A stretch of 64,000 nt of DNA. It comes from Tubulanus polymorphus. Taxonomy: Eukaryota > Animalia > Nemertea. Where the stretch lies: assembly GCF_964204645.1 (NCBI RefSeq), contig NC_134031.1, forward strand, positions 10,416,001 to 10,480,000. Direction: 5' to 3'. The translations under genes and the position numbers were made by a program. The notes under the pieces are model-generated. The model worked only from the letters and a program-made list of their open reading frames with translations, was not told where the DNA came from and did no database searches. Below, one piece after another: positions 8,781 through 64,000 of the stretch; the stretch's first letter is position 1, and every line of letters begins with the position of its first letter.

Positions 8781-8786
8781 CTTTTG

Positions 8787-14258: not shown

Positions 14259-16690
<2,432 letters not shown>

Positions 16691-17379: not shown

Positions 17380-17385
17380 CTTTTG

Positions 17386-39900: not shown

Positions 39901-40433
39901 CGCGCTGAACGACGTTTTCGCGTCGAAAAGTGCTTTTCCTGACGATTTGAGCGCTTTTACGCATCGACATTGTCGTTTTTCCCATAGGGGGAATATTTGA
40001 TACGAAAACGTCTTTTGTCGCGCTGAACGACGTTTTCCCGTCGAAAAGTGCTTTTCCTGACGATTTGAGCGCTTTTACGCATCGACATTGTCGTTTTTCC
40101 CATAGGGGGAATATTTGATACGAAAACGTCTTTCCTCGCGCTGAACGACGTTTTCGCGTCGAAAAGTGCTTTTCCTGACGATTTGAGCGCTTTTACGCAT
40201 CGACATTGTCGTTTTTCCCATAGGGGGAATATTTGATACGAAAACGTCTTTTCTCGCGCTGAACGACGTTTTCGCGTCGAAAAGTACTTTTCCTGACGAT
40301 TTGAGCGCTTTTACGCATCGACATTGTCGTTTTTCCCATAGGGGGAATATTTGATACGAAAACGTCTTTTCTCGCGCTGAACGACGTTTTCGCGTCGAAC
40401 AGTGCTTTCGCGTCGAACGTCTTTTCTCGCGCT
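33911..40433. repeat. 118-bp satellite array, left part (variant A to about 37150, then variant B)
   Basis: Tandem CTGACGATTTGAGCGCTTTTACGCATCGACATTGTC...GAAAAGTGCTTTTC. Confidence 0.98.
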
Positions 40434-40553
40434 AGTAATTGGGAAAGTAGGCTTTCATACCAAAGTACGAAGTACGAGACACCACTCATCACCACAAGTA
40501 ATTTTTTTCCTAACACTCATCACCACAAGTAATTTTTTTTCCTAATAAATGGG
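40434..40553 (+). repeat. Polinton left TIR
   Basis: Matches the reverse complement of 56794-56913 with one mismatch seen. Confidence 0.95.
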
Positions 40554-43500
40554 GGAGAATGAACACCAACTAGAAAACAATAATGTCAATAAAAATCAAT
40601 ATTATTTTCAATATTGTAAAAAATACATCGATAAATCTAATAAATCTAAACATGAAAAATCTTCAGATCATATAAAAAATGTTATAGATTTTGAAACTCC
40701 AGAAAATTCCATTGAAAGAAAAGAACGATTAGAATATATGAATGTGGATGAAATAAAATGTGAAGTTTGTGATGAATTTATAACAAAAAGGAATTATAAT
40801 AAACATCTCGAAACAGAAAAACACCATCAAAATTTGAGAAATAATGTTTTAGGAATAGATTATTTTGATGATAAACCTCAACAAGTAAAAGAATCAACTT
40901 CAAAAACTAAATCCATTTCAAATAAACCTTACATGGAAAATATTAGAAATTATATTGATTCACTAGAAATAAAAGATACAATTGAAATCTTAGAAACATT
41001 ACATAGTAAAATTGGTCCTGCAGCTATTATATTTAGATTTTTTAAAGGTACAACAATAGAAGATTATAGTAAATTTAATGAAATAATAGAAAAAATACTA
41101 GATTTGATAACAGATGTTGAATATCCAAAAATTAGTATCTCTGGGAAAGTAAGTTTTATAAAGTCAGAAGAAAAAATGGATTATAATATTCAAACACACT
41201 CTGAAGAAATAATTTCAAAAACACAAATAAAAGAGAAGTTAGAAAAAATATTAAATGAATTTAAACGTCATATTGAAGAAAGATATTTTGAGGGTTCTGG
41301 CTTAACATTGAATGAAATTATATATTTAGATTTAAATGTTTATAATACAAAAAGGAATAAAACATCAAAATGTAATAAAATGTTTAAAAATGATTCAAAC
41401 TTTACAACAGAAAAGGATATGAAAGCATCAAGTTATATCAAATTACCGTTTACAACAAAAGCAGTAATAAATATTCAAAATGAAGATAATAAATGTTTTC
41501 TATGGTCAATTATTAGTTGTTTACACCAAACAGAAGATATGACACATAGTTTTAGAATAACAAATTACCGGAAATATGAAACATTATATAAAATTGATCA
41601 ATATCCAGTAACTATAAAAATGATTCCTAAAATAGAAAAAGTTAATAATTTAAAAATAAATGTATTCGAATTAATGCAATTACCAAAAACAAAAGGTGAA
41701 AATATTAAAGATTATACATTGGAAGCTGTATATTTAACAGAATAATATGATGATGAAAATGCTATAGATTTGTTATATTACAAAAAAGATGAAAATGAAC
41801 ATTATATGTGGTTAAAACAAATTGATTTATTCTTTAGAACAGAAAGTGATCATCATAATAAAATTTATCTATGTAGAAAATGTTTATCCAAATTTATGAC
41901 TGAGAATACATTATTAAAACATAAAGAATTATGTGATAATAAAGATTTTTGTAAATTAATAATGCCAACAGAAAAAGATTATAAATTGAAATTTACTAAT
42001 TATAAATTTGAAAATATTGTTCCATTTGTAATTTATGGGGATTTTGAATCGTTGAATAAAGAATTAACTGATCAAGATAGAAAAGAAATATATAACAAAA
42101 AGCAATTATTAAAATCAATGGATAAAGGAAATGAATTAAATGAAGACACAATACAAGACCCACCAATTATAAATACAATTAAAAAAGTTCATCAAAGAGC
42201 TGCTGCTTATGGAATTTACATCAAATCAAATTATCCCGAATTATATGAAAGTCAATATATTTCTTTTAGAGGTGAAAATGTAGTTAATGATTTTTGTGAT
42301 AAAATGATTGAATTAGAAAGTGATTTTACAAAATTATTAAACAAAAATAAAAGAATAGTTATGACAAAAGAAGATGAAATTGATTTTAATTATGCAACTC
42401 ATTGTTGTTATTGTGAAAAACGTTTTTATTCATTTGATAAAAGAGTTAGAGATCATGATCATTTGAATTCAAAATATCGTGGAGCTGCTCATGAAGATTG
42501 CAATTTACAAGCTAAGAAAGTTAATTTCGTACCAATATTATTTCATAATTTATCAGGCTATGATACCCATCTATTTATAAAACAATTATCAGGAAAATTG
42601 GGCGCAATTAATCAAGAAATAGAAGAATATAATGCTATGAATGAAGCAAATGTAAGAAAATATGATTTTAAACTATTAGCTAAAACATCTGAAAATTATA
42701 TTTCATTTCAATTTGGTTGCATTAGATTTTTAGATTCTTATAGATTTCTAGCAAGTTCATTAGATAATTTATCAAAAAGTTTAGTTGATAATGATTTTGT
42801 TATAACTCGATATTATTATCCAAATGAACAAGATTTTAAATTATTGAGATATAAAGGCGCAATTCCTTATTCATTTTATAAAACACATGATGATTTTAAT
42901 GTAACAGAATTATTAAAAGATCAATTTTATGATCAATTAAAAGAGGAGTATGTGAAAGACGAAGTGTTTAATAGAACATTAAATATTTGGAACCATTTTA
43001 AGATGAAAAATCATGGCGAATTAGTTGATTTATATTTAAAATCAGATGTTATGATATTGGCTGACATATTTGAAAAATTTAGAGAAGTTAATTTGAATCA
43101 TTTTAATGTTGATCCTTGTTATTGTTATTCAAGTCCTGGTTTAACCTGGCAATGTGGTTTAAAATATACAAATGTAGAATTAGATTTATTAAAAGAACCA
43201 GATATGGTTTTATTATTTGAAAAATCAATTAGAGGTGGAATTAGTGGTGTTATGGGAGATAGGTATTTTAAAGCAAATGATGAATATAAATTATTATATA
43301 TTGACGCCAATAATTTATATGGTTGGGCAATGATGCAACCTCAACCATATAAAAATTTTATATTAACAGAAGTTGAAAATGATGATAAAACTAATTGGGA
43401 AAGCGCAATTATGAGTTTAGAAGATGAAGCACCAATTGGTTATTTCTTTGTAGTTGATTTAGAATATCCTGATAACATAAAGTTTAAAACAAGAAACTTA

Positions 43501-45618
43501 CCTTATTGCCCAGAACATTTAACTGTAGATGATAGTTATTTAAGTGAATACCAGAAGAAAATAAAACCGAAAGATCATGTTTTTACAGAAAAATTAATAC
43601 TTACTCAAAATAATAAATACAATTATATTGTTCATTATAGAATGTTAAAATTTTATCTAAAACAAGGAATGAAATTAAAGAAAGTACATAGATATATTGA
43701 ATTTAATCAATCAAAGTGGTTAGAAAAATATATAGATTTCAATACTCAACAGAGAACCATATCAAAAACAGATTTTGAAAAAGATTTCTTCAAATTAATG
43801 AACAATAGTTTTTATGGTAAAACATGTGAAAATATTAGAAATAGAAATGATATTGAATTAGTAAATAATTCTGAACGATTGAGACACCTACAATCAAGTC
43901 CTAGACATTTAGGAAATAAAAGATTTGAAGATTATTTAACAGCAGTAAAATTAAAAAGAACGTCAATGAAATTTAATAAACCCATTTTCATTGGTTCAAC
44001 AGTTTTAGAAATATCAAAATTATTAATGTATGATTTTTATTACAATGTATTACAACCATTGTTTGGGGAAAAACATATAGAAATTCTATACTTCGATTCT
44101 GTAACAGCTGACACCCCAATATTATTAAAATACAATAACCAAATATTAATTAGAAGAATTTCAGAAATAATTCCTAATCAAAATAAATCTTATATTTCAT
44201 ATGGTGAAAAAGAACTAATACAAATAAATGGTTTAATAGATGTTTGGACAAGAAATGGATGGAAAAAATTAAAGAATATTATTAGACATAAAACAAATAA
44301 GAAAATCTATAGAGTTAGAACTAAATTAGGATTTGTAGATGTTACTGAAGACCACAGTTTAATTAAACGAAATGGTGATGAAATAAAACCAACTGATATA
44401 AAAATTGGAGATGAATTATTACATAAAAGATTTTTCCCAAGAATGAATCATATGTCATTTGATGAAATAATTGATAATATTTATAATATAGAACCCGAAA
44501 CATTGGAAGAAAAAGAATATTTTATCAAAGGATTTTTCATGGGTGATGGTTCAGCAGGTGTGTATAATTATATTTGGGGTAATAAATATTGTTGGTATTT
44601 ATGCAATCAAGACTTAAAATTATTAGAAAGAATTAAGAAATTCTGTGAAGAAGTTTATTCACATAAAACATTTAGAATCATGGATGTTATGAAATCATCA
44701 GCAGTTTATAGAATACTTGTAAATAATCCTAAAGATTTTGCTATAGAATATAATGATGAATTCTATATTCATGCAATAGTGAAAAGTAATACTTCAACTA
44801 AAGAAAAAATAGTACCAGATTATATATTAAATTCAGAATATAATCTTAGAAAATGGTTCTTCATTGGGTTCTACGCAGCTGATGGTACTAAAAAATTTAC
44901 AAAGGATAAAACGATAACCTTTGCACAGAAAGGAAAATGTGCAATAAGTGGGTTAAATGTGTTATGCAGTTCATTAGGCTTCAATATGAATATTGGATTG
45001 ATTAAATCTAAACCAAATTGCTTTAATTTAAGGCATGTAGAAAAAGATTTAACTGAAGAAGTTAAAGATTTATTTGAAATATATAACCCAACTGATTATG
45101 TTTATGATTTATCAACAGATGATGGAACATTCAATTCTGGGTTCCCATTAATCCAAAAAAATACGGATGCGTACATACTAAAAATCAAGACAAATGACAT
45201 AACAAAAGACTTAAAAACATTAAAACATCATTTTGATTTTAGCAATTATCCTAAAGATCATGAACTATTTAGCAATGATAATAAAAAGATTCCTGGTAAA
45301 TTTAAAGATGAATTAGGAGGTGATGAAATGATTGAATTTGATGGGATAAGAAGTAAAATGTATAGTTACAGAACAAAAGATCATGAAGCTAAAAAGTTAA
45401 AAGGAATAACAAAACATGTGGTTGATAAACATATAGAATTTCAAGATTATATAAAGTGTTTATATAAATCAATTGTAATGAAACACAAGATGAATTGTTT
45501 AAGATCAGAAAATCATGAGATGTACATTAATGAAGTTGAAAAAACTAGTTTAAATCCATTTGATGATAAAAGGCATATTTCAGATGATGGTATAAAAACA
45601 TTACCTTATGGCCATTAA
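40549..45618 (+). CDS. polB: Protein-primed family B DNA polymerase, intein-containing, with one in-frame TAA at 41743-41745
   Basis: ExoI IYGDFES, ExoII FHNLSGYD, ExoIII YLKSDV, motif A YIDANNLYGWAM, motif B KLMNNSFYGK, motif C YFD|TDA; ORFs 40549 and 41770 share a frame; N-terminal zinc finger and OTU-like KCFLWS...HY. Confidence 0.93.
42403..42504 (+). other. Endonuclease VII-like His-Me finger inserted in the pPolB exonuclease domain
   Basis: CCYC...VRDHDHLNSKYRGAAHEDCN. Confidence 0.7.
44098..45162 (+). mobile_element. Intein (355 aa) with LAGLIDADG homing endonuclease
   Basis: Block A SVTADTPI, block B VTEDHSL, block C FIKGFFMGDGS, block E FFIGFYAADGT, block F YVYDL, terminal KN with +1 Thr. 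Confidence 0.95.
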
Positions 45619-45881
45619 AACATAAAATCAATATCATCATACTCGAAATCACTATTGGCTTCTTCATTTTCATTTAATTGTTCAGGTTCTTCTTCCATTA
45701 CATTTTTCTCATTTAAATAAAGTTCTATCTTGTTCCACATTTCATCTCGCTCTCTTTGTTTCTTTTTGTTTGTTAATTCATCAAATGGAATTATAATATC
45801 TAGGTTTAAATAATTTACAATCTTATTTAAAAAGAATTCATAATTTATTGAATCTGTTATTCTATTTTCCAAATGATACAT
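45615..45881 (-). CDS. Small hypothetical protein with acidic tail
   Basis: 88-aa ORF packed between neighbouring genes. Confidence 0.55.
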   Translation of the reverse strand: MYHLENRITDSINYEFFLNKIVNYLNLDIIIPFDELTNKKKQRERDEMWNKIELYLNEKNVMEEEPEQLNENEEANSDFEYDDIDFMF

Positions 45882-45891
45882 TAATATTTGT

Positions 45892-46917
45892 TTAAATATT
45901 TTTTTTTATATTTTCCATATCTTCTTCTGTTAATTTAGGTTTTTCATAATAATCGTTAAATAATAAATATAAATACATTTTCTTTTGTTTTGTGTTAAAT
46001 GTTGGTGGAATAATTGTTTTTATAATATCTTTTTTAGTTATTTCACCATTTTTATTTTCTATTATTTTCATTTTTTCAAGCCATTGCATATATTCTGGTG
46101 TATTATCTTCTATAGAAAATATTTTAAAAATTTCATCTAGATAATTAAATTTTGGTTCTATGAGAAAATCTCTAGTTTTTTCTTCACCCCATAAATTCTT
46201 TTGCCATCCACATTCAACACAAAATAACACAGTACCTTCTTGCCTTAAGGTCGCATAACTACATTGTGGGCATTTTTGTTTATAATTTCTTGGTAATAGA
46301 TCTTCATTAAGCTCTTGGTATTTTCTTACGTTTTCTTTATGTTTTATTGTTCTATTATGTAGATTTGAATTACTTGTTGTAATAATCAATTTACAATATT
46401 TACAATAATATGTTTTTCTTGTTAATTCATTATATTGTTTTTCTAACTTTTCAACTGTTTCTTCATTATCTGGTAACGTTTTCTCATATTTTATTTTTTC
46501 TAATAAATTATTTTTTCTTGCATTGAATTCAGTTTCAAATTTATTAGAAATTTTATCTATATGTGCTTTACGAAATTGATGATTCTCCCAATCTTCTATA
46601 TTTTCAAGGCTATATTTTATTCGACAAGGCTCACAGAAATGATCTTTTATATTATCCTTATCATAGTATAAGAAAGGTCTTTTCCAAATAACTTCAGGTT
46701 CAACTTCAGCAGAATTACTATCAACATTAGCCGTTGCGCCATTAATTCTACACTTCTCTGAATGTTTTTTAACATAATTTCTTGAGAATAATTTATTACA
46801 TTTTGGACAGTTTATTTTAGGGGGTTTATAATTTTCATTATGTTTTTTCATATGTCGAGCCATATTACTTTTTCTTAGAAGTTCACCACAAATTTCGCAT
46901 GCTATCTTCTCATCCAT
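45892..46917 (-). CDS. Multi-zinc-finger protein
   Basis: CEICG..MARHMKKH, CPKC, CEPC..H..H, CKYC..H..H, CPQC..CVEC; TAAATG start. Confidence 0.8.
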   Translation of the reverse strand: MDEKIACEICGELLRKSNMARHMKKHNENYKPPKINCPKCNKLFSRNYVKKHSEKCRINGATANVDSNSAEVEPEVIWKRPFLYYDKDNIKDHFCEPCRIKYSLENIEDWENHQFRKAHIDKISNKFETEFNARKNNLLEKIKYEKTLPDNEETVEKLEKQYNELTRKTYYCKYCKLIITTSNSNLHNRTIKHKENVRKYQELNEDLLPRNYKQKCPQCSYATLRQEGTVLFCVECGWQKNLWGEEKTRDFLIEPKFNYLDEIFKIFSIEDNTPEYMQWLEKMKIIENKNGEITKKDIIKTIIPPTFNTKQKKMYLYLLFNDYYEKPKLTEEDMENIKKNI

Positions 46918-46985
46918 TTATTAAGGAAAAATTTTATTAAAATTAATTTTTAGCGATGAGTGGTAATTTTTTTATGTTATAAATA

Positions 46986-47743
46986 ATGGTAGAATTAAAA
47001 GAATACAGAATATTTGTTGATTCTAGAAAACTTCAAATTATAAATCTCATAATTTACTAGTACAATTAGATAGAGAATTTAAGAATTGTGTAGATTTAAA
47101 ATTAGTTAATATAAGTTTATGTAATTCTTTTTATAATATATCGGATAAAAGTCTAGAACATTTAATTTTTTCAATCTTTTACAAAAAAAGGAATAAATGG
47201 TTTTTTATATATTTAAAACCAGGATTATATAATTTAGATACATTAACACAAGAAATTAATAGAAAAGCTCGAGCTAAATTAGGAAGTGATTCCGGATTTA
47301 GTATTAGAATTTTAAAAAGTGCTAGTTCTAATAAAATAAAGATTAGGTTAGCTAATGACGAACAATTTAAATTTACAATAAGAAAACCTTTAGCTAAACT
47401 GTTAGGAATTGCACCAGATACCGTTACAGCATACGCAGAAGGTAACTCAAATATAATACCTTTTACACACTTTTATATTTATTGCAATTTAATCGATCCT
47501 ACAAAAACATTTGAAGCAACTAAAGATACAATTTGTAATTCTGGTTTATTAAATATTTTACCATTAAAAAATGTCAAACAATTCGGAACTCAAATAAATT
47601 ATAATTTAACTGAATGTGATTTCAAACCTTGTATTCCACATTTCAATAATTTTAAATTAGAAATAAGAAATCATAATGGTTATTTAATTGATTTGAATAA
47701 CTTTCCTGTAATTTATGAATTAGTTATAAGATGTAAAGAGTAA
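46986..47743 (+). pseudogene. Minor capsid protein (penton), 1-nt frameshift; absent from the ORF track
   Basis: MVELKEYRIFVDSRK, then another frame: LCNSFYNI..LKPGLYN..LAKLLGI..FYIYCNLI..LLNILP..LEIRNHNGYLIDLNNFPVIYELVI*. Confidence 0.75.
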
Positions 47744-47759
47744 TTTTTCACCTTTATAA

Positions 47760-48113
47760 ATGAATATAACTGTTGGACCGAGTATATGTTTTGGGTTTGA
47801 TTTTAAACGTGAGAAAGAAATGAAATTTAACATTAATGATGTAATAACACATATCAAAAATATTGCATTTTCTAATGAAACAACATTTGAGTATGAAACA
47901 ACAATAGATAAAGAAACTTTAAATGTAGAAAAGATTACTAATTTAATTAGAGAATCTTTAAGATTTTATGAATTAGATGAAGATTTTATAATCGATGATA
48001 TTAAAAAAATAATAATTGAAATATATACAAATGAAACTAGTAATAAAATAAATGTTGAATTAATCATAAATAAGTTAACTAAATATTTTGATGATAGTAA
48101 TTTTTTTGATTAA
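47760..48113 (+). CDS. Hypothetical Polinton protein
   Basis: 117-aa ORF, TAAATG start. Confidence 0.65.
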   Translation: MNITVGPSICFGFDFKREKEMKFNINDVITHIKNIAFSNETTFEYETTIDKETLNVEKITNLIRESLRFYELDEDFIIDDIKKIIIEIYTNETSNKINVELIINKLTKYFDDSNFFD

Positions 48114-48116
48114 TAA

Positions 48117-48338
48117 ATGAGTGATAATAAGTGGATAATAACTGGATTATATAATGGCGCATTACTATCAGTTGGAACTGTTGGTTATTCAATGGTATTA
48201 AAAAAAGTATTCAAAATGGGAAGTGTTAATGTTGATAGATTTGATATCAATGATATTTTAAAGTTAACATTAGCAGTTACTTTATCTAATTTAACAATTG
48301 ATTATTTGGAAAAACAAAAATATATTCCTCCCAGATAA
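48117..48338 (+). CDS. Small hydrophobic Polinton protein
   Basis: 73 aa, two hydrophobic stretches, TAAATG start. Confidence 0.7.
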   Translation: MSDNKWIITGLYNGALLSVGTVGYSMVLKKVFKMGSVNVDRFDINDILKLTLAVTLSNLTIDYLEKQKYIPPR

Positions 48339-48362
48339 ATACATAATTTTTTTGTTAAATAA

Positions 48363-48785
48363 ATGGCTTCTGCAATTATAACTATTATAGGATCGGCAAT
48401 TGTTAACGCTTTAGCATTTACTGGTGGTGGTTATTTATTTAAACATATTGATAAAAATAGTTCATTAGGAGAACAAAGAAGACATAACTTAGCGTTAGAG
48501 AAATACAATAAAGCTGCAGAAGAATATAGAGAAAAGAGGCAAAACTATATGGATTATATTAACAAGGAATTATATGATCAGAAGATTCCACATAGAGATT
48601 TTCAATCAGTTGATGATGCAATGAGTTTATATAACGCGGTAACCAATAAAGAAAAATTACATCTATACAAACCTAAATTATCAGATTATTATACCCCAAG
48701 TAAAGAACAACAAAAATATGAAATAATATGGATTTTAGGTGGAACTGTTATTGTTATATTTGTTGCTTATAAGTTTACTTATTAG
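48363..48785 (+). CDS. Putative membrane protein (hydrophobic termini, central coiled coil)
   Basis: MASAIITIIGSAIVNALAFTGG...EQRRHNLALE...WILGGTVIVIFVAY; TAAATG start. Confidence 0.75.
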   Translation: MASAIITIIGSAIVNALAFTGGGYLFKHIDKNSSLGEQRRHNLALEKYNKAAEEYREKRQNYMDYINKELYDQKIPHRDFQSVDDAMSLYNAVTNKEKLHLYKPKLSDYYTPSKEQQKYEIIWILGGTVIVIFVAYKFTY

Positions 48786-48804
48786 TAATTTTTATTCTAA
48801 ATAA

Positions 48805-49239
48805 ATGGAAGATAAAGTTGATAGTATTGATATTATTCCTCATGATATAAATAAAACTAAATTAAAAACATATTTAGAAAAACAAATATTAGAATTTGAA
48901 AGTGACTTAAAGATAAAAAAGAAAAAATATTTAAAAAGTAAAATTATATATTATTTGATTATAAGTGGTTCGGTTACAATTAGTTCTGTAATAACATTTC
49001 TAGCAATATTCAGCCCATTAACACCTTTAGCTATATCAATTGGTGTGTTAGGATTAAGTTCAAGTGTTTTAACTGGTATAAGTTCAAAATTAAATATAAA
49101 AAGTAATAAAGAAAAAATAAAATCTAATATAAAAGAAATTAATAAATTAAAGAACACACTAGATTATATAATAAGTTTAAATGGTCATATAACAGTTGAA
49201 GAACAAGATAAATTATTAAAAGAATTAATAAATTATTAA
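48805..49239 (+). CDS. Two-transmembrane coiled-coil protein
   Basis: Central hydrophobic hairpin; TAAATG start. Confidence 0.7.
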   Translation: MEDKVDSIDIIPHDINKTKLKTYLEKQILEFESDLKIKKKKYLKSKIIYYLIISGSVTISSVITFLAIFSPLTPLAISIGVLGLSSSVLTGISSKLNIKSNKEKIKSNIKEINKLKNTLDYIISLNGHITVEEQDKLLKELINY

Positions 49240-49255
49240 TTTTTTAATTATATAA

Positions 49256-50644
49256 ATGGTAGATAGTTTTCCAAAAGCTTTCCGATATAATAAATCAATT
49301 AAATATAATATTCCAGCAATAGATTTTAATAAAGATATTACATATAGAAATGAAGTTTTAGATTCATTAACTAATTTAGAAATTTATGTTACTGAAACTA
49401 ATAATTTTAATGCAAAGATGGAAAATATATTTCATGTATATTTAATTAATTTTAAAAAATTGAAAGATGAAAAACAATGGTTATTAAAATCTAATATGAA
49501 GTATTGGCAGAACCAATTAAATTTTGCTGTTTATTGTGCAACAACAGGATGTGGAATAAGTTGGAATGATCATTTGAATAATTCTAAATATAAATTAATT
49601 CAAAGTTTATTTAGATTTCATACATACTTTCAAATCAGAATAATATTAAATGAATTAGAGTGCGCTTTACCAGGATCTAGGTATTTCAAAGAATTAGATA
49701 ATAATATTAATTTATCAAAGTTTTATAAAATTTGCAATGAATTTAATATAGATATAAATAATTCTGATTTTAGAATAAAAATTGGAACAATAAGATCACT
49801 TCCATGCCCTAGAAAGATTGCAGAATATTGTGCACTTCCCATACCATCTAATAGCTTTTATAATATCTATAATAAAAAATTAGGTTATGGTAAAATAGAA
49901 ACAAAGGATTTAGAAACATTAAATTTCAATAAATTACCGAAATTTTATGATAATTTAAAACAAGAAAACAATAATGGTTGGGTTTATTTTATTTTAGAAA
50001 ATAGTGAAGGTTTTACTAAATCAGGTATAGAAAGAATAAATCAATCTATTAGAACTTATTTGATTTGTATTTTAGGTGCGCAAGTTGAAACAAGATCACC
50101 GATAATTGGAAATTTGAATACATCATTCGATACACAAAAACAATTTAAAGTTTTATTTGAAGATTCCATACATGATGATAAAAATAGATCGATTCCAGAA
50201 AACATTATAAGATATCAAAATTATTTAGATAAATCTCATGTAAGACTTAATTATTGTATAGGCCCTAATCTATTAATTATTTCTAATGATTTAGTATTGA
50301 AGATGGGAAATATAATTGGTTATAATAATCTAATTAAAACTGCAACAATAAATAATTCATTTGGATTAAATGATATAAATAAAAAGATTATTACTGCTCC
50401 AAAATTAATGGAAGGTGAAAAAAATAAAAAACATATTCAATCAACTGAAACTAAAACTAAGAATATTAAATTGGTTAATGATTCTAAAATAAAAGATTAC
50501 AATACATCAGAAAATAATAGAACTGATAAAATTCAACATGATATAATTAAACTAAATAATGATAATAAATCCCATGAAAATACTAAATTAGCTATAACTT
50601 GTATAGGAATTGTAATCGGAGGAATATTATATTTTAAATTTTAA
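49256..50644 (+). CDS. Uncharacterised Polinton protein with C-terminal TM anchor
   Basis: 462 aa, WQNQLNFAVYCATTGCGIS, C-terminal LAITCIGIVIGGILYF. Confidence 0.8.
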   Translation: MVDSFPKAFRYNKSIKYNIPAIDFNKDITYRNEVLDSLTNLEIYVTETNNFNAKMENIFHVYLINFKKLKDEKQWLLKSNMKYWQNQLNFAVYCATTGCGISWNDHLNNSKYKLIQSLFRFHTYFQIRIILNELECALPGSRYFKELDNNINLSKFYKICNEFNIDINNSDFRIKIGTIRSLPCPRKIAEYCALPIPSNSFYNIYNKKLGYGKIETKDLETLNFNKLPKFYDNLKQENNNGWVYFILENSEGFTKSGIERINQSIRTYLICILGAQVETRSPIIGNLNTSFDTQKQFKVLFEDSIHDDKNRSIPENIIRYQNYLDKSHVRLNYCIGPNLLIISNDLVLKMGNIIGYNNLIKTATINNSFGLNDINKKIITAPKLMEGEKNKKHIQSTETKTKNIKLVNDSKIKDYNTSENNRTDKIQHDIIKLNNDNKSHENTKLAITCIGIVIGGILYFKF

Positions 50645-50660
50645 TTTTTTTATTATATAA

Positions 50661-52049
50661 ATGGAAGTAGAAGGTGGAGAAGATATTGGAATGGATCCTT
50701 TTGATGAACCTGGTATAACTGATGAACAACCACCTGATTTTGATGAAACAAGTTTCAGTAACGAAAATGAAACAGCATATAATTCTAATTTAGCAAGACC
50801 TGATACCAATGAATATGTTAATAAAGCACGTTCAAGATTGGATATTGAAAATGAAAATCCAGATTTAATGAAAAAAGAACTAGAATATGACGAATTAACA
50901 GATAAATTCAAACCAATATTAGAAAAATCTGGATTCAATATAACAAATAAAAATGAATTATTTAGTAAAAGATTTGAAATATTTAAATGGTGATTATTAT
51001 TGGCATTTGAAAGATGACTATTATTTTAAGATTTCTTCTAATAAAAGTCTTGATAAAATAATAACAAAATCAACTTTTATTAAATTAGAACAATCTAGAA
51101 TTAAAAAAATCAATAATGATGTTATAACTGATGTTACAGAAGAAGAGATAAATCAAAATAGAAGAGAATTTAATCGAAGAAATAATGATTTTTTGAAGAT
51201 AATTAATGAAAATTTAGAACCAGAAACAATTCCTAAAGAAGATAAAACTTCCAAAACTAGTAGACCTAATTCAAGAGAAGTTCAAACTGAAAAACTTTTA
51301 CCGAAGGGATTACTTGATGCAACAGATCAAGAATTAGAAGATTTAGATATATTTTCTGATAAAGCAATTAGAGAAATTATTAGTATAAGACTTGCATCTG
51401 ATAAAATTGCACATAATAAAAGTATAAGAGATTTTAAAATTAGAACTTTAGAAAAAGAATTAACTGATAAAAATAAAGAAATAGAACAATTAAAGTCTGA
51501 TTTAGATCATCAAGTAATTGATGAAATAGAATATAGGCAAAAAGAATTACGTTTAGAAAAAGAAAAAGATGATTTAGAATATAACATAATATTAATAGAT
51601 TAAAAGTTATTTTTAAAGATTTGTTGATTAAACCAAATTCTGAAATATCACTAAAAGACAGAATAAGATTATTATTTAAATTAGAAGGAATAACAATTCT
51701 TTCAATTCTAACAGCTGTAACTATGTTATTTACAACAATTGGTTTAGCAATATCAAATGCTTTGAAATCTACTCCTACTCCAAATAAACCAGATAAACCT
51801 CCAGGTAATAATTCTATACAAGATAAAGTTAAGGATGGTTTAAAGAAATTAGCAAAATATTTATGGGAACTATCTAAAAAATCTGCTGCAGCATTGCCAG
51901 GAATTATTGCATCAATTGTTGGTTTTATATTGAAATCTGCTGGGAATATTCTTAACTTTGCTGCTGAACATATTATTTTATTTTTAATTACAGTTGTAAG
52001 TGCTATTATTTTTGGTTTAGTAAATATGATATCAAAAAATATCAAGTAA
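50661..52049 (+). pseudogene. Coiled-coil membrane protein broken by two frameshifts
   Basis: ORFs 50661-50993, 50953-51603 and 51621-52049 overlap or abut in different frames; only the first has the TAAATG start motif. Confidence 0.7.
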
Positions 52050-52090
52050 ACCATGATAAAAAATAAATAATTAATTTTTTTGTTAAATAA

Positions 52091-53338
52091 ATGAGTGGGA
52101 GTTATATAAGTCCTTCAAAGATTTCTAGAATATCTAATGCTATTAAAGCAGAAAGATCACATCATATAATTACTCATAACCCTTCAAATATTAATCCCGA
52201 TGAAACTTTATACGTTAGAATCCCTCGATTAACACAAAATACTTTTTATGTTCCAAATAGTATTTATTTATCAGCCGATATAAAAGTAACTGGCCATGAT
52301 AACAATTATGTTGTTGATAATGTTGGAAGATATTTGATTAAAAAATTAACTATAAAGATTGGTCCGGAAACAGTTTTCTCATTAGATGATTATAATTTAT
52401 TTATGCATTATAAAGATTTATGGTTAACTAAAGAAAATAGAAATAATATGATATTTCAAGGCATCCAATCGGAAAACCATAATAAATTAAGATCTGAAGC
52501 CAATAATGCAGTAGTAACTCGTGCCACAGATAATTTGATTAAAAAGATTTATGGAAGCAAATATAAAATTCCATTAGACTTTGAATTGATAAATAATAAT
52601 GCACCTTTATATAAATACGCAATTCAAGAAGATATTATATTTGAGATAACATTTGCTCCTGTAAATGAAATTGTATTATCTAGCGTTGTTAAAGATATGG
52701 GTTATAAATTATCGAATATATGTTTAGAATATAACACAGTAACTAATGAAAATATTGCTAGCACAATTCAAACTCAATACAATCAAGGATTTTCATTATT
52801 ATATGATTATATTGATAAATTTAAAACTGTAACTATTAATGCAAATGATGAAATAATTAATGAGAATATTAACTTTCCTAGAAGATCTATTAAAGGTATA
52901 TTAATACTTTTTACTATTGCAACATATTCTAATGGTGCAATAAATGTTGATAATTATTATAATCCTGAAATAACAAAAGTAGAAATAACTATTGAAGGTA
53001 TAGCGAATAAAATATTTTGTCAAGGAATGAGAATGATTGATCAATGGTCAGAAATTAAAAAACATTTTATGAATGAAAAAGTAAAATCATTTGAAAATTG
53101 TAATATTAATCAAATTGATTATTATACCGGTAATAAATATGCATTATGGTTAGATTTTAGAACAACTGAAGATAATTCATTACATGGTTCTGGAAAAAAA
53201 CTACAGAACACTAAAGATGGAATACAATTATTCATGAAAAAGAATAAAGGAATCAAAAATTTTAAAATGCACATTTATATTATATCTGACGCACAATTAA
53301 ATATTGTAAATTCACAATTAGATAGTATTCAATATTAG
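52091..53338 (+). CDS. Major capsid protein (double jelly-roll)
   Basis: 415 aa, beta-strand-rich pattern (TLYVRIP, LSADIKV, LIKKLTIKIG, IIFEITFAP, LSNICLEY, ITKVEITIEG, ALWLDFR); size and context fit. Confidence 0.8.
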   Translation: MSGSYISPSKISRISNAIKAERSHHIITHNPSNINPDETLYVRIPRLTQNTFYVPNSIYLSADIKVTGHDNNYVVDNVGRYLIKKLTIKIGPETVFSLDDYNLFMHYKDLWLTKENRNNMIFQGIQSENHNKLRSEANNAVVTRATDNLIKKIYGSKYKIPLDFELINNNAPLYKYAIQEDIIFEITFAPVNEIVLSSVVKDMGYKLSNICLEYNTVTNENIASTIQTQYNQGFSLLYDYIDKFKTVTINANDEIINENINFPRRSIKGILILFTIATYSNGAINVDNYYNPEITKVEITIEGIANKIFCQGMRMIDQWSEIKKHFMNEKVKSFENCNINQIDYYTGNKYALWLDFRTTEDNSLHGSGKKLQNTKDGIQLFMKKNKGIKNFKMHIYIISDAQLNIVNSQLDSIQY

Positions 53339-53368
53339 AAATATAAAGTTAAAATTAAGGATATATAA

Positions 53369-54496
53369 ATGAGTGGTAAAAAAACTCCTAATATTAAAGA
53401 ACAATATTTAAGAAATTTATATTACAACCCTGAGAGTTCGGTTGCTTATTCTTCTACTAAAAATATATGGCGTAAAGTAAAACAAGATAAATTAGATAAG
53501 ATAATCCCACAAAATTTAGTTAAATATAAAGATATAAATGAATTTATGTTAGAACAACCAACATATACAACACATAAAAAAATTGTTAGAAAATATAAAA
53601 CTCGTAAAACTATGGTAAGTTATGTAGATCAACAGTGGCAAGGAGAATTAATTGATATGAAAAATGTTAAGAAAGATAATGATGATTATTGGTGGTTATT
53701 GAATATAATTGATATTTTTAGTCGTTATGTATGGAGCTTCCCACTTTATAGAAAAGATGCTGTACAAACATCAAATGTTTTAAGAAAATTTCTTTCGGAT
53801 GATAAACTAAAACCAGAAAAAATACAATTTGATGATGGAAAAGAATTTGATAATTCACTTGTTCATGGACTTTTAGATTTTCATAATATTAAATATTTTT
53901 CAACAAAATCGGATAAAAAAGCAGCAGTTGTTGAACGATTTAATAGAACATTAAGAACAAGAATGTGGAAATATTTTACAGCAAATAATACTTTTAAATG
54001 GATTGATGTTTTACCAAAATTGATAGAAGGATATAATAATTCTTATCATTCTTCTATTGGAATGAAACCTATTGATGCTAGAAAACCTGAAAATGCTGAA
54101 ATTGTTTGGAATAATTTATATGGAGCATTTCTTGTAGATGATTTTGGTGAACCTAAATTTAAAGTTGGTCAAAATGTTAGAATTTCTAAGTATAAAAAGA
54201 TATTTGATAAAGGATACGATCGAAATTTTACTAGAGAAATATATAAAATAAAAAAGGTAATAACAACTAAACCATATGTCTATAAATTAGAAGATTTAGA
54301 TGGTGAAGAAGTTGATGGATATTTTTATGAAGAAGAATTAAGTTTAACTACTGAAAATCTAGAACAAGAATATAAAATTGAAAAAGTACTAAAAACAAAA
54401 ACTATTAAAAGAAAAAAATATTCTTTAGTAAAATGGGTTGGATGGCCAGATAAATTCAATGAATGGATATTATCAAGTAAAATTAAAAATATATAA
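53369..54496 (+). CDS. Retroviral-like (rve) integrase with C-terminal chromodomain
   Basis: QWQGELIDM, IDIFSRY, QFDDGKEF, VVERFNRTLR, YNNSYHSSIGMKP; YKIEKVL...LVKWVGWPDKFNEW. Confidence 0.93.
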   Translation: MSGKKTPNIKEQYLRNLYYNPESSVAYSSTKNIWRKVKQDKLDKIIPQNLVKYKDINEFMLEQPTYTTHKKIVRKYKTRKTMVSYVDQQWQGELIDMKNVKKDNDDYWWLLNIIDIFSRYVWSFPLYRKDAVQTSNVLRKFLSDDKLKPEKIQFDDGKEFDNSLVHGLLDFHNIKYFSTKSDKKAAVVERFNRTLRTRMWKYFTANNTFKWIDVLPKLIEGYNNSYHSSIGMKPIDARKPENAEIVWNNLYGAFLVDDFGEPKFKVGQNVRISKYKKIFDKGYDRNFTREIYKIKKVITTKPYVYKLEDLDGEEVDGYFYEEELSLTTENLEQEYKIEKVLKTKTIKRKKYSLVKWVGWPDKFNEWILSSKIKNI

Positions 54497-55105
54497 ATGA
54501 ATAAGGAATTATTCATATTTGAGCCTCATAATATGTTAATTTCTGGCGTAACAAATTGTGGAAAAACTTATTTCATATTAAATTTATTAGAAACTGTTTA
54601 TAAAAACTATTTTGATAATATAGTATTATTTTGTCCAACATATGAATTTAATCAAACTTATGATAGAAATATTACTAGGAATAATAAATTTATTATATTA
54701 GATCCTAAAACAGTAAAAGAAAATTTAGATAATTGTATAAAAATAGCAATTGATATTTATAAAGGATCAAATACATTATTTATCATAGATGATTGTGCAA
54801 ATTTACATGATTCAAAAATTAGAGAAAGTGAGTTATGCTATTTAGCTTTCTCTGGGAGACATTTTGGGATAACAACTTGGGTTTTAAATCAAAAATATAA
54901 TTCAATTGTTAAAGACTTTAGAGAAAACATTAGATTTCTAGTTTTATTCTACAATAAAGATAGAAAATCAATGAAAAATGCACTTGAGGAAAATGATATT
55001 ATTCCACATGATTTACATAATGAATATATGGATAAGTTGAAAAATATTAAAAGATCAAAATTACTATTTAGATTACAACACCCATTTAAATATGTATTTA
55101 TTTAA
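54497..55105 (+). CDS. A32-like FtsK-HerA packaging ATPase
   Basis: Walker A GVTNCGKT, Walker B FIIDD, GRHFGITTWVLNQ. Confidence 0.92.
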   Translation: MNKELFIFEPHNMLISGVTNCGKTYFILNLLETVYKNYFDNIVLFCPTYEFNQTYDRNITRNNKFIILDPKTVKENLDNCIKIAIDIYKGSNTLFIIDDCANLHDSKIRESELCYLAFSGRHFGITTWVLNQKYNSIVKDFRENIRFLVLFYNKDRKSMKNALEENDIIPHDLHNEYMDKLKNIKRSKLLFRLQHPFKYVFI

Positions 55106-55109
55106 ATTC

Positions 55110-55370
55110 AATTAGTTTGTTAATCTAGTTGAATTCTAGTTGAATTCTAGTTATTAGTAGTTGTAACAAAAATCAAATAGATTTAACAATATTTTAACTA
55201 GCTTGTTAATCTAGTTGAATTCTAGTTACATTCTAGTTGAATTCTAGTTGTTAGTAGTTGAAACAAAAATCAACTAGATTTAACAAGAAATAAACAAAAA
55301 CACTAATATTTCAACTAGCTTGTTAATCTAGTTGAATTCTAGTTACATTCTAGTTAAATTCTAGTTGCAA
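55110..55370. repeat. Internal non-coding direct/inverted repeat cluster
   Basis: Three copies of TTGTTAATCTAGTTGAATTCTAGTT...; inverted TCAACTAGATTTAACAAG. Confidence 0.8.
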
Positions 55371-55400
55371 CATCACACAATTAATTTTTTTGTTATATAA

Positions 55401-56006
55401 ATGGTAGGTGAAAAGAAAATAAAATCTAAAAATGGTGATGTTCCAATTGAAAAAACTTTAGATGATTTAGGAATAACAGAAACAAAATTAACTCCAGATG
55501 ATGGTGCTTTAAATATTGTTACAACAAATAATAATTATGAATATTATCTTTATTGTAAACATCAATTAGAAATATTAATAGCATCTGGAAAATGTAAAAA
55601 TTTTATCGGTAAAAATTTAACTTATAATGAATTAGATACAATGAAATCAGATGAAATTATTAGATTATTTAAGATTTATGAAGCCGCGAGAACAGCTAGA
55701 ATTAATGACGCGATATCAGAAAATGTAGTAAAAGGTTATAGTAAATTATGTAATTATATACTACCAATTGAAGATGAAAATAGATTATATTCCGATTTAA
55801 AAAATGATTATTTAGTTATGACTGAATTAAATAAATGGATTGGATATTTATCATTTCAATTAGGTGGATTTATGACATTATTATCAACTGGGGTTATAAC
55901 ATTTTCAAATATTGAAAGTAAAAATATTTCTATAATAAATGAGCGAAGTGAAAGAAGTGAAGGAATTAACTGTGAAGAAAAAACCGAGAACTCAGAAACA
56001 AATTGA
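55401..56006 (+). CDS. Hypothetical Polinton protein
   Basis: 201 aa, TAAATG start. Confidence 0.75.
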   Translation: MVGEKKIKSKNGDVPIEKTLDDLGITETKLTPDDGALNIVTTNNNYEYYLYCKHQLEILIASGKCKNFIGKNLTYNELDTMKSDEIIRLFKIYEAARTARINDAISENVVKGYSKLCNYILPIEDENRLYSDLKNDYLVMTELNKWIGYLSFQLGGFMTLLSTGVITFSNIESKNISIINERSERSEGINCEEKTENSETN

Positions 56007-56307
56007 ATGGTCTCGACAATTAGGAATTAAATCACAAGAATATAAAAAAGCTGTAAAAGAAAAAATAAGTAATAAAAATGTTAATAAAAATGGCGAAAAT
56101 ATTGTTATTTCTACTCCTTCTGATAGTAGAATATTTGATAAATATTTATATTTTACAGTTGGATTTGTAATTGTATTCATTTTGATTGGGTGTAATTGGT
56201 ATAAGAAATCAAATAAAATTCATGATATTAGTAATTCTGAACCAACTGCTATCAAAAATGAAAGTACTTCTGAAATTCCAAAATTGATAATAAAAAAAAT
56301 GGATTAA
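55939..56307 (+). CDS. Basic single-TM protein
   Basis: KKKPRTQKQIEW...LYFTVGFVIVFILIG; TAAATG start. Confidence 0.7.
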   Translation: MSEVKEVKELTVKKKPRTQKQIEWSRQLGIKSQEYKKAVKEKISNKNVNKNGENIVISTPSDSRIFDKYLYFTVGFVIVFILIGCNWYKKSNKIHDISNSEPTAIKNESTSEIPKLIIKKMD

Positions 56308-56471
56308 TATTTTAGAAAAAAAGCAAAAAAAAATAATTTTTTTTAATTAATTGAATATTAATTGAATATCTCACTACTTTTGTCTATCTATGTGGAGCAA
56401 TTAAATTGTCCAGATAAGTCATTTCGGATTCTAGATATTCATTATTTTTATTAATTTATTTTTTTTTAAAT

Positions 56472-56798
56472 TTAATCAACAATTTCTAAATCATGATGAC
56501 CGTCTTCATTTTTCCCATGATATATTATTTTAAATCCTACTAAATCTTTCAATTCCTCCGTACTCAATGAAACCCATTTATCGGGTAAAAACACTTTAAA
56601 TTCTCGTGATGTACTAACATTACAGTAGCTTAAATTAGCTGATACTTTCTCTCCATATTTAGTTTTTATCTTTTCTAATTTCAATATTTTATGTTCAATT
56701 TCTTTTGTAACATCAACTAACTTTTTTATTTCAAATTGTTTTTTTGCTGGTTTTATTCTGTTATTTATTGTTGCTAAGAATGCTTTTCTATCTCCCAT
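56472..56798 (-). CDS. Terminal small protein, possibly OB-fold
   Basis: KTKYGEKVSANL...KVFLPDKW; ATG lies inside the right TIR. Confidence 0.65.
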   Translation of the reverse strand: MGDRKAFLATINNRIKPAKKQFEIKKLVDVTKEIEHKILKLEKIKTKYGEKVSANLSYCNVSTSREFKVFLPDKWVSLSTEELKDLVGFKIIYHGKNEDGHHDLEIVD

Positions 56799-56913
56799 TT
56801 ATTAGGAAAAAAAATTACTTGTGGTGATGAGTGTTAGGAAAAAAATTAATTGTGGTGATGAGTGGTGTCTCGTACTTCGTACTTTGGTATGAAAGCCTAC
56901 TTTCCCAATTACT
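56794..56913 (-). repeat. Polinton right TIR
   Basis: Reverse complement of 40434-40553. Confidence 0.95.
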
Positions 56914-59900
56914 CGCGCTGAACGACGTTTTCGCGTCGAAAAGTGCTTTTCCTGACGATTTGAGCGCTTCAACTCATCGACATTGTTGTTTTTCCCATAG
57001 GGGGAATATTTGATACGAAAACGTCTTTTCTCGCGCTGAACGACGTTTTCGCGTCGAAAAGTGCTTTTCCTGACGATTTGAGCGCTTTTACGCATCGACA
57101 TTGCCGTTTTTCCGATAGGGGGAATATTTGAAACGAAAACGTCTTTTCTCGCGCTGAACGACGTTTTCGGGTCGAAAAGTGCTTTTCCTGACGATTTGAG
57201 CGCTTTTACGCATCGACATTGTCGTTTTTCCCATAGGGGGAATATTTGATACGAAAACGTTTTTTTCTCGCGCTGAACGACGTTTTCGGGTCGAAAAGTG
57301 CTTTTCCTGACGATTTGAGCGCTTTTACGCATCGACATTGTCGTTTTTCCCATAGGGGGAATATTTGATACGAAAACGTCTTTTCTCGCGCTGAACGACG
57401 TTTTCGGGTCGAAAAGTGGTTTTCCTGACGATTTGAGCGCTTTTACGCATCGACATTGTCGTTTTTCCCATAGGGGGAATATTTGATACGAAAACGTCTT
57501 TTCTCGCGCTGAACGACGTTTTTGGGTCGAAAAGTGCTTTTCCTGACGATTTGAGCGCTTTTACGCATCGACATTGTCGTTTTTCCCATAGGGGGAATAT
57601 TTGATACGAAAACGTCTTTTCTCGCGCTGAACGACGTTTTCGCGTCGAAAAGTACTTTTCCTGACGATTTGTGGGCTTTTACGCATCGACATTGTCGTTT
57701 TTCCCATAGGGGGAATATTTGATACGAAAACGTCTTTTCTCGCGCTGAACGACGTTTTCGCGTCGAAAAGTGCTTTTCCTGACGATTTGAGCGCTTCAAC
57801 TCATCGACATTGTCGTTTTTCCCATAGGGGGAATATTTGATACGAAAACGTCTTTTCTCGCGCTGAACGACGTTTTCGCGTCGAACAGTGCTTTTCCTGA
57901 CGATTTGAGCGCTTTTACGCATCGACATTGTCTTTTTTCCCATAGGGGGAATATTCGATACGAAAACGTCTTTTCTCGCGCTGAACGACGTTTTCGGGTC
58001 GAAAAGTGGTCTTCCTGACGATTTGAGCGCTTTTACGCATCGACATTGTCGTTTTTCCCATAGGGGGAATATTTGATACGAAAACGTCTTTTCTCGCGCT
58101 GAACGACGTTTTCGCGTCGAAAAGTGGTTTTCCTGACGATTTGAGCGCTTTTACGCATCGACATTGTCGTTTTTCCCATAGGGGGAATATTTGAAACGAA
58201 AACGTCTATTCTCGCGCTGAACGACGTTTTCGGGTCGAAAAGTGCTTTTCCTGACGATTTGAGCCCTTTTACGCATCGACATTGTCGTTTTTCCCATAGG
58301 GGGAATATTTCATACGAAAACGTCTTTTCTCGCGCTGAACGACGTTTTCGGGTCGAAAAGTGGTTTTCCTGACGATTTGAGCGCTTTTACGCATCGCCAT
58401 TGTCGTTTTTCCCATAGGGGGAATATTTTATACGAAAACGTCTTTTCTCGCGCTGAACGACGTTTTCGCGTCAAAAAGTACTTTTCCTGACGATTTGAGG
58501 GCTTTTACGCATCGACATTGTCGTTTTTCCCATAGGGGGAATATTTGATACGAAAACGTCTTTTCTCGCGCTGAACGACGTTTTTGGGTCGAAAAGTGCT
58601 TTTCCTGACGATTTGAGCGCTTTTTCGCATCGACATTGTCGTTTTTCCCATAGGGGGAATATTTGATACGAAAACGTTTTTTTCTCGCGCTGAACGACGT
58701 TTTCGGGTCGAAAAGTGGTTTTCCTGACGATTTGAGCGCTTTTACGCATCGACATTGTCGTTTTTCCCATAGGGGGAATATTTGATACGAAAACGTCTTT
58801 TCTCGCGCTGAACGACGTTTTCGGGTTGAAAAGTGGTTTTCCTGACGATTTGAGCGCTTTTACGCATCGACATTGTCGTTTTTCCCATAGGGGGAATATT
58901 TGATACGAAAACGTCTTTTCTCGCGCTGAACGACGTTTTTGGGTCGAAAAGTGCTTTTCCTGACGATTTGAGCGCTTTTTCGCATCGACATTGTCGTTTT
59001 TCCCATAGGGGGAATATTTGATACGAAAACGGGTTTTCTCGCGCTGAACGACGTTTTCGCGTCGAAAAGTGCTTTTCCTGACGATTTGAGCGCTTTTACG
59101 CATCGAAATTGTCGTTTTTCCCATAGGGGGAATATCTGATACGAAAACGTCTTTTCTCGCGCTGAACGACGTTTTCGGGTCGGAAAGTGCTTTTTTTGAC
59201 GATTTGAGCGCTTTTTCGCATCGACATTGTCGTTTTTCCCATAGGGGGAATATTTGATACGAAAACGGGTTTTCTCGCGCTGAACGACGTTTTCGCGTCG
59301 AAAAGTGCTTTTCCTGACGATTTGAGCGCTTTTACGCATCGAAATTGTCGTTTATCCCATAGGGGGAATATTTGATACGAAAACGTCTTTTCTCGCGCTG
59401 AACGACGTTTTCGCGTCGAAAAGTGCTTTTCCTGACGATTTGAGCGCTTTTACGCATCGCCATTGTCGTTTTTCCCATAGGGGGAATATTTGAAACGAAA
59501 ACGTCTATTCTCGCGCTGAACGACGTTTTCGGGTCGAAAAGTGCTTTTCCTGACGATTTGAGCCCTTTTACGCATCGACATTGTCGTTTTTCCCATAGGG
59601 GGAATATTTGATACGAAAACGTCTTTTCTCGCGCTGAACGACGTTTTCGCGTCAAAAAGTACTTTTCCTGACGATTTGAGGGCTTTTACGCATCGACATT
59701 GTCGTTTTTCCCATAGGGGGAATATTTGATACGAAAACGTCTTTTCTCGCGCTGAACGACGTTTTCGCGTCGAAAAGTGCTTTTCCTGACGATTTGAGCG
59801 CTTTTACGCATCGACATTGTCGTTTTTTTTTCCCATAGGGGGAATATTTGATACGAAAACGTCTTTTCTCGCGCTGAACGACGTTTTCGCGTCGAAAATT

Positions 59901-62900: not shown

Positions 62901-64000
62901 CGTTTTTCCCATAGGGGGAATATTTGATACGAAAACGTCTTTTCTCGCGCTGAACGACGTTTTCGGGTCGAAAAGTGGTTTTCCTGACGATTTGAGCGCT
63001 TTTACGCATCGACATTGTCGTTTTTCCCATAGGGGGAATATTTGATACGAAAACGACTTTTCTCGCGCTGAACGACGTTTTCGGGTCGAAAAGTGGTTTT
63101 CCTGACGATTTGAGCGCTTTTACGCATCGCCATTGTCGTTTTTCCCATAGGGGGAATATTTGATACGAAAACGACTTTTCTCGCGCTGAACGACGTTTTC
63201 GGGTCGAAAAGTGGTTTTCCTGACGATTTGAGCGCTTTTACGCATCGCCATTGTCGTTTTTCCCATAGGGGGAATATTTGATACGAAAACGTCTTTTCTC
63301 GCGCTGAACGACGTTTTCGCGTCGAAAAGTACTTTTCCTGACGATTTGTGGGCTTTTACGCATCGACATTGTCGTTTTTCCCATAGGGGGAATATTTGAT
63401 ACGAAAACGTCTTTTCTCGCGCTGAACGACGTTTTCGCGTCGAAAAGTGCTTTTCCTGACGATTTGAGCGCTTCAACTCATCGACATTGTCGTTTTTCCC
63501 ATAGGGGGAATATTTGATACGAAAACGTCTTTTCTCGCGCTGAACGACGTTTTCGCGTCGAAAAGTGCTTTTCCTGACGATTTGAGCGCTTTTACGCATC
63601 GACATTGTCGTTTTTCCCATAGGGGGAATATTTGATACGAAAACGTCTTTTCTCGCGCTGAACGACGTTTTCGGGTCGAAAAGTGGTCTTCCTGACGATT
63701 TGAGCGCTTTTACGCATCGACATTGTCGTTTTTCCCATAGGGGGAATATTTGATACGAAAACGTCTTTTCTCGCGCTGAACGATGTTTTCGCGTCGAAAA
63801 GTGGTTTTCCTGACGATTTGAGTGCTTTTACGCATCGACATTGTCGTTTTTCCCATAGGGGGAATATTTGAAACGAAAACGTCTTTTCTCGCGCTGAACG
63901 ACGTTTTCGGGTCGAAAAGTGCTTTTCCTGACGATATGAGCCCTTTTACGCATCGACATTGTCGTTTTTCCCATAGGGGGAATATTTCATACGAAAACGT
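56914..64000. repeat. 118-bp satellite array, right part (variant B)
   Basis: Same monomer, resumes in phase after the TSD. Confidence 0.98.

Follow-up and report, generated by a model that had tools for sequence, protein, structure and literature searches.

A pol-c intein in the protein-primed DNA polymerase of a Tubulanus polymorphus Polinton: relatives, likely homing and candidate donors

The intein, its insertion site and its host element

The intein of the Mimivirus B-family DNA polymerase (PolB; R322) occupies the pol-c site, YGD/TDS, the slash marking the insertion point (Ogata et al., 2005, PMC549080). As intein hosts, the survey of eukaryotic inteins by Green et al. (2018, PMC5784728) gives in its section 5 fungi, algae, amoebae, some further protists and four families of giant viruses; neither Polintons nor animals are named there. 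As for Polintons, HNH and VSR nuclease insertions have been described in their protein-primed polymerase (pPolB) (Jeong et al., 2023, PMC10748475), and such insertions have been suggested to represent intein invasions (Krupovic et al., 2024, PMC11071308); the words intein, LAGLIDADG, homing and Hint are all absent from the text of Jeong et al., as far as it was available. Competition between co-infecting giant viruses by means of homing endonucleases has been proposed for Bodo saltans virus (Deeg et al., 2018, PMC5871332). In the accessible parts of the open PubMed Central and bioRxiv literature (e.g., PMC8502044, PMC12220804, bioRxiv 10.64898/2026.10.13.758929), no description of a Polinton with a complete intein came to light; supplements could list some.

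The insert located at 44098..45162 (+ strand) of the 64,000-nucleotide stretch of T. polymorphus DNA analysed here (the window) is a genuine intein at the pol-c site. Its 355 aa include Ser1, the T83-x-x-H86 motif, D150 and D262 within the LAGLIDADG motifs, and a terminal Lys354-Asn355 followed by Thr+1. The reading frame, open throughout, begins with SVTADTPI and ends with FPLIQKN, and it is flanked by the ILYFD and TDAY of a protein-primed PolB. The insertion therefore falls between the D and the T of polymerase motif C (YFD/TDA), which reads YFDTDS in empty relatives and is the very site occupied by the Mimivirus intein. The host protein matches the Pfam family DNA_pol_B_2 (E 4e-19), with additional weak matches to Intein_splicing and LAGLIDADG_3. 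Both LAGLIDADG motifs (GFFMGDG and GFYAADG) are intact, and residues S1, T83, H86 and N355 are invariant across 25 aligned inteins. The AlphaFold model of the intein, obtained with the alignment of 25 sequences (pLDDT 89.6, pTM 0.90), finds its top solved matches among endonuclease-bearing inteins, namely TliVMA (E 1.5e-17) and PI-PkoII (E 2e-16). The intein is predicted to self-splice and to home into empty alleles. Splicing by the standard Ser/Asn/Thr route would restore the D-T-D active site, so that the polymerase would be functional only if the intein splices.

The window intein resembles the giant-virus pol-c inteins, as these are presented in PMC549080 and PMC5784728, in its position between D and T of motif C, in its Ser...Asn/Thr ends, in its length of about 350 aa, in its LAGLIDADG endonuclease and in its motif set. 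It differs from them in its host, which is a protein-primed Polinton polymerase residing in a eukaryotic chromosome, and in its flanks, YFD/TDA instead of YGD/TDS. All ten motifs on which the original prediction had based a likeness to the Mimivirus PolB intein are found in the window intein; however, among the 246 non-Polinton inteins extracted each of them recurs in between 16 and 158 sequences and the KN end in 86, so that these motifs mark the intein family and not Mimivirus. The HNH and VSR insertions described in PMC10748475 likewise place endonuclease domains inside Polinton polymerases, but as far as the paper could be consulted those are bare nucleases, whereas the window holds a complete splicing domain with a LAGLIDADG endonuclease in the active site, and both carrier and empty alleles exist. 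Complete homing inteins in Polinton polymerases extend the pol-c allele to protein-primed polymerases.

The polymerase gene belongs to a Polinton/Maverick of 16,480 bp (40434..56913) with AGT...ACT ends, inserted within a 118-bp satellite array. The Polinton hallmarks present are terminal inverted repeats (left, 40434..40556, + strand; right, 56791..56913, - strand; 98% match), a 6-bp target-site duplication, CGCGCT (40428..40433 and 56914..56919), pPolB, an rve integrase and an A32 ATPase. The 5′ part of the pPolB gene (40549..41745, +) matches the N-terminus of the intact protein P0408 at 57% and is closed by an in-frame stop at 41743-41745, while the 3′ part, in the same frame (41746..45618, +; 69% to P0408), encodes the exonuclease domain and the polymerase domain, the latter interrupted at motif C by the intein. 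The element further carries a zinc-finger protein gene (45892..46917, -; zf-U1, E 7e-7), a frameshifted gene broken near its start (46986..47745, +; end coordinate approximate), which by resemblance may be a minor capsid (penton) gene, a likely double jelly-roll major capsid protein (52091..53338, +), a retroviral-type integrase (rve) with a chromo domain (53369..54496, +) and an A32-type packaging ATPase (54497..55105, +), the last two recognised by Pfam. The capsid candidate has feature match scores of 0.97-0.98, the matched named clusters bearing DJR or Capsid_N on 10-24% of their members, and neither a Pfam nor a PDB sequence match. No Pfam match to an adenain-type protease was obtained among the 15 element ORFs scanned. 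Signs of decay are the pPolB stop upstream of the intein, the frameshift at about 46986 and the region 50661-52049, which resembles one fragmented gene. Since pPolB is broken upstream of the intein, the latter is likely not made from this particular copy.

The satellite array, with its 118-bp unit, extends over 33931-40408 (55 copies) and 56912-64000 (60 copies) and yields spurious repetitive ORFs. Elsewhere in the window, in the region 8549-22266, HECT-fragment ORFs are surrounded by related repeat clusters of 30/84/114/144 bp, which lie at 8855-9348 and 16856-17311 and are oppositely oriented; a PHD-finger ORF adjoins this repeat region and three further ORFs are found at 18254-22266. A HECT fragment flanking the element resembles protein clusters in which Chordata is the most frequent phylum, a weak hint that the host is an animal. 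The region possibly holds other mobile elements.

Relatives, age and donor of the intein

The closest inteins (41-75% identity) are all found in Polinton pPolBs and at the same site. They are those of P0005 (75%, partial), P0002 and P0007 (67%, partial), P0048 (65%), P0049 (50%), P0050 (48%), P0003 and P0052 (47%), P0051 (46%), and P0056, P0057 and P0011 (41-42%). Inteins of RNA-primed PolBs, up to about 42% identical, form the next tier, and 269 proteins matched at E 1e-30 or better in a search of representatives. For tree building, 267 inteins extracted by regular expression were reduced to 225 by end and length filters and to 192 by clustering at 80%. The Polinton inteins were monophyletic in FastTree with support 100 (9 of the 192 rows), and the same clade was recovered in a quick tree (SH-aLRT 100; 10 of 74 rows) and in an LG+G4 tree (100/100, with the bootstrap still not fully settled; 8 of 46 rows). 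In every tree it was nested among inteins of RNA-primed PolBs, mostly from giant viruses. Because the intein lies among those of RNA-primed PolBs while its extein is a Polinton pPolB, it must have crossed polymerase subfamilies, as the original prediction had held. That the jump was particular to this Polinton lineage is contradicted by the position of the window intein inside a Polinton-wide clade and by the roughly parallel divergences of intein and extein. As a side observation, inteins of the same family are present in thymidylate synthase and topoisomerase II, at D/TD-like sites (P0075, P0053, P0151, P0154, P0167 and P0210).

Among carriers belonging to the pPolB class of the window, intein/extein identities are 65/57, 50/46, 47/42 and 42/42%, and the branching orders agree. 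The GC content of the intein (0.256) is like that of the extein (0.238-0.258), so a recent arrival is not indicated. The agreement of intein and extein in composition, identities and branching speaks for a long residence in Polintons, and the nesting in the Polinton clade, together with the parallel divergence, for an old entry. The intein likely entered Polintons once, long ago. Carriers are scattered among empty relatives: 12 of the 13 closest polymerases (52-84% identity) are intein-free, including the nearest at 84%, and a survey of 158 rows yielded 26 carriers, 78 empty proteins and 54 unclassified rows (mostly the uninterrupted DCDS variant or fragments). On an extein tree of 38 hand-chosen rows, the presence of the intein needs 10 changes, 9 of which are forced by strong branches. 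In P0051, an intein similar to that of the window is combined with an N-extein that cannot be aligned with the window's (E 0.53), which indicates a horizontal jump between pPolB classes. The empty Polinton alleles P0423-P0524 and P0313-P0320 display an unusual variety of motif C (DCDS, DTDA and DTDG beside DTDS), possibly an escape from the endonuclease.

A one-residue C-terminal deletion (G-F-P-L-I type) is shared by all 21 complete-ended Polinton inteins, as compared with 18 of 237 others; 13 of these 18 are of giant-virus type and 5 belong to the phage-type polymerase group. The names of 12 giant-virus MAGs were sought in the supplement of PMC8575486, in which 8 are listed: the five classifiable MAGs with the deletion are all IM_01, that is, Mesomimiviridae, and the three without it are IM_06 or IM_18. 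When Polinton and Mesomimiviridae-type inteins were constrained to group together, the likelihood was 1.6 above that of the free tree in one test (p-AU 0.53) and 3.4 below it in another (p-AU 0.445). Mesomimiviridae-type and phage PolB inteins are 38-42% identical to the window intein. Our best guess from these characters is that the intein most likely came from an Imitervirales giant virus of the Mesomimiviridae type. The reading that we favour, and hold to be fairly probable, is that of a Polinton-wide clade of homing inteins which would go back to a single old entry from the pool of RNA-primed PolBs, most likely from Imitervirales of the Mesomimiviridae type.

The Mimivirus intein itself was not found by a pattern scan and a P0098-based scan of the viral contigs; it is represented by two stand-ins, P0098 and L080, chosen for the match of their C-exteins to Fig. 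S1 of PMC549080. These are 38% and 31% identical to the window intein, respectively, and both lack two shared indel characters, including the one-residue deletion. The spacer preceding the first LAGLIDADG motif measures 47 residues in P0098 against 59-64 in the Polinton inteins, and in the alignment this stretch is missing from L080 as well. The intein of Megavirus courdo11 is 28% identical (structural alignment). AU tests in which the stand-ins were made the sister of the Polinton clade gave p 0.053 with P0098 alone and 0.288 with both, no formal rejection in either case. Compared with these stand-ins, the window intein lies in a separate clade, that of the Polinton inteins, and shares its indels with Mesomimiviridae-type inteins. 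A sister-group position of the Mimivirus stand-ins appears disfavoured by these data, and the view of Mimivirus as the closest source, advanced in the original prediction, finds no support beside the more similar Mesomimiviridae-type and phage inteins.

A different donor, either a protist Pol delta intein or the intein of a T4-type phage polymerase, could be combined with the same Polinton clade and the same homing; we consider this unlikely, although it has the most in its favour among the alternatives. The T4/RB69-type phage PolBs P0059, P0061, P0063, P0180 and P0352 (three typed by PHROGs, one by PDB) carry related inteins. Those of P0059, P0061, P0063 and P0180 have the one-residue deletion and are 40-41% identical to the window intein, and a grouping of Polinton with phage inteins reaches p-AU 0.40. 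On the other hand, the phage-polymerase inteins group with IM_01-type inteins in the LG+G4 tree (support 93/92; 46 rows), which suggests acquisition from the same pool and an apparent exchange of inteins between giant viruses and bacteriophages. In quick trees, P0058, a protein like Pol delta (E 1e-176 against a Pol delta of solved structure; weak C4 zinc finger), adjoins the Polinton clade together with P0269 (SH-aLRT 94), and the match of the P0058 intein (E 2e-78) is on a par with the best giant-virus inteins; however, this intein lacks the shared deletion and its placement beside the Polintons is absent from the LG+G4 tree. The top solved match of P0269 is 8ywg, which we take to be an asfarvirus polymerase. 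Proteins of Pol delta type with C4 zinc fingers, namely P0166 (named Chloropicon primus Pol delta), P0058 and P0214, have inteins of the family at YGD/TDS; the nuclear intein hosts tabulated in the accessible part of PMC5784728 do not include Pol delta.

A donor other than a giant virus also has to be set against a pool that is mostly viral: 417 intein matches were obtained among the 599 stretches of viral contigs scanned, as compared with only 11 weak loci in prokaryote and archaeal genomes (best full-length match 25% over 342 aa) and 2 weak matches in annotated phages. The weakness of the archaeal matches rules out an archaeal origin. The phage and protist groupings, which the original prediction had also named as contrary outcomes, keep some plausibility as sisters, T4-type PolBs and Pol-delta-like proteins both carrying close relatives. 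With the phage and Pol-delta carriers, one intein family moves among four kinds of B-family polymerase; in the text of Ogata et al. (PMC549080) available to us, movement between polymerases was thought possible only via a series of steps.

Homing among Polintons and cutting of viral sites

The family of P0049 is a cluster of 136, of which 15 members were listed; from these and two close matches, seven carriers and eight empty proteins were aligned. The exteins are mostly 95-100% identical, yet within 11 residues of the site in either direction carriers and empty proteins match at only 55-64%. The divergence between carriers and empty proteins, 3.4% on average, rises to 41% in the window of 20 residues that surrounds the site, the top peak of 1172 windows. 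At the site, three haplotypes can be distinguished among the empty alleles. When these alleles are compared with one another, the site ranks second by divergence, so that their escape from cutting is at most suggested. P0341 and P0344 are 98-99% identical, one with and one without the intein, and have identical flanks. Both endonuclease motifs are retained in all nine Polinton inteins inspected. In the window, five of the eight codons flanking the intein, four on each side (44086..45174, +), end in G or C, against a GC3 of 0.13-0.17 in the extein; five such codons per eight are reached in 1 of 907 other 8-codon windows, a size picked after the patch had been seen. The G/C-ending flanking codons fit a converted patch. 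On this evidence, which is at the protein level or from single copies and takes the contrast of carriers and empty alleles from related families, the intein likely still spreads between Polinton copies by homing.

According to the mechanism that we propose, empty polB alleles in co-resident Polintons would be the target of cleavage by the LAGLIDADG domain, and carrier-templated repair would copy the intein along with a few adjoining codons. Within lineages the intein would be gained and lost in turn, and at least once it would have jumped to a distant pPolB class. The logic proposed for Bodo saltans virus is the same, in that a carrier cuts the empty allele in a related genome that replicates alongside it (PMC5871332, as far as available); the likely targets in our case differ, being other Polintons, many of which reside in one host genome. 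Multi-copy Polinton families with carrier and empty alleles that are 97-100% identical make homing, co-conversion and target escape measurable within single eukaryotic genomes.

It is quite improbable, in our judgement, that, after its entry into an ancestor of the pPolB class, the intein was passed on mainly by vertical descent, with many losses and with homing now rare or absent in the lineage of the window. Congruent branching of intein and extein, their similar identities and their like base composition are what such a history would produce, but it is at odds with the conservation of the endonuclease motifs in nine of nine Polinton inteins, with the near-identical pairs of carrier and empty alleles and with the sharp divergence peak at the site; moreover, P0051 requires a horizontal jump, and the intein would have had to be lost precisely some ten times.

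In a comparison with 144 intein-bearing loci, the flanks of the window intein showed at least 8 mismatches in 24 nt every time (median 12), and the window site differs at 8 positions from the published Mimivirus 18-mer (PMC549080; manual count). In the same paper, as far as its text was available, Ogata et al. judged homing across 5-7 mismatches implausible. Given a mismatch of at least 8 in 24 nt at all 144 loci, the speculation in the original prediction that the window endonuclease might cut an empty viral polB is unsupported. That this Polinton lineage took the intein directly from a Mimivirus-like polymerase, and that the endonuclease can still cut the viral site, is highly improbable: the common site and motifs speak for it and the AU values leave room for the stand-ins, but the window intein is nested within the Polinton inteins, the stand-ins and Megavirus courdo11 are distant, the stand-ins lack the deletion and P0098 has a shorter spacer, and the target sites do not match.

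Late-type gene starts and contact with large DNA viruses

In the vaccinia late-promoter consensus, TAAATG lies over the start codon and a T is found at -10 among other Ts (PMC11980589, accessible text). The gene starts of the element match this consensus. The late-like start of the pPolB gene (40530..40551, +) consists of a T-run, a T at -10 and TAAATG. TAAATG is present at 14 of the 15 ATG-started element ORFs as compared with 44 of the 639 ATGs of the element, and the lone ORF without it is probably an internal fragment. A T at -10, mostly within a T-run, accompanies 13 of the 14 TAAATG starts but 10 of the 30 other TAAATG sites (Fisher p 0.0003). The four host-side ORFs checked have no TAAATG start. 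Overlap with poly(A) signals or stop codons could add TAAATG; this would leave unexplained both the T at -10 and the first gene after the terminal repeat. Upstream of the integrase, the ATPase and ORF 55939, the sequence is A-rich and nearer the intermediate promoter class.

No RNA polymerase was detected in the Polinton. Late-like gene starts suggest transcription by a large cytoplasmic virus and hence the presence of Polinton DNA in a viral factory. We infer that the element would depend for its transcription on a large cytoplasmic DNA virus; Polinton and virus DNA could meet there, which makes it a plausible setting for the exchange. Vaccinia late promoters (PMC11980589, same text) and helper-dependent virophages offer the likeness, with TAAATG at the start and T at -10; the difference is that the putative promoters described here belong to an integrated Polinton. 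Mesomimiviridae-type loci have 0-3 TAAATG starts per locus and do not share this usage, so that helper and donor may be different viruses. No report of poxvirus-type promoters in Polintons was found in open PubMed Central papers and bioRxiv.

Intein and promoters provide two separate hints of contact between Polintons and large cytoplasmic DNA viruses. A wider proposal, to which we give somewhat less than an even chance, is that old, giant-virus-derived inteins act as a gene drive among Polinton copies in animal genomes and diversify the active-site codons of empty alleles, the exchange having occurred through parasitism of cytoplasmic large DNA viruses. If true, working inteins would be resident in animal chromosomes.

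Close relatives of the Polinton were sought in viral contigs, where a polymerase scan returned three distant loci and a capsid scan none. One of the three is L210:1-9034, a Polinton-like but distant contig in which 7 of 8 ORFs start with TAAATG; in the other two, 0 of 10 and 0 of 1 do. Within each terminal repeat of the window element, a 31-bp tandem duplication (40483-40545 and 56802-56864) doubles the T-run portion of the promoter, and both terminal repeats direct a TAAATG start inwards.
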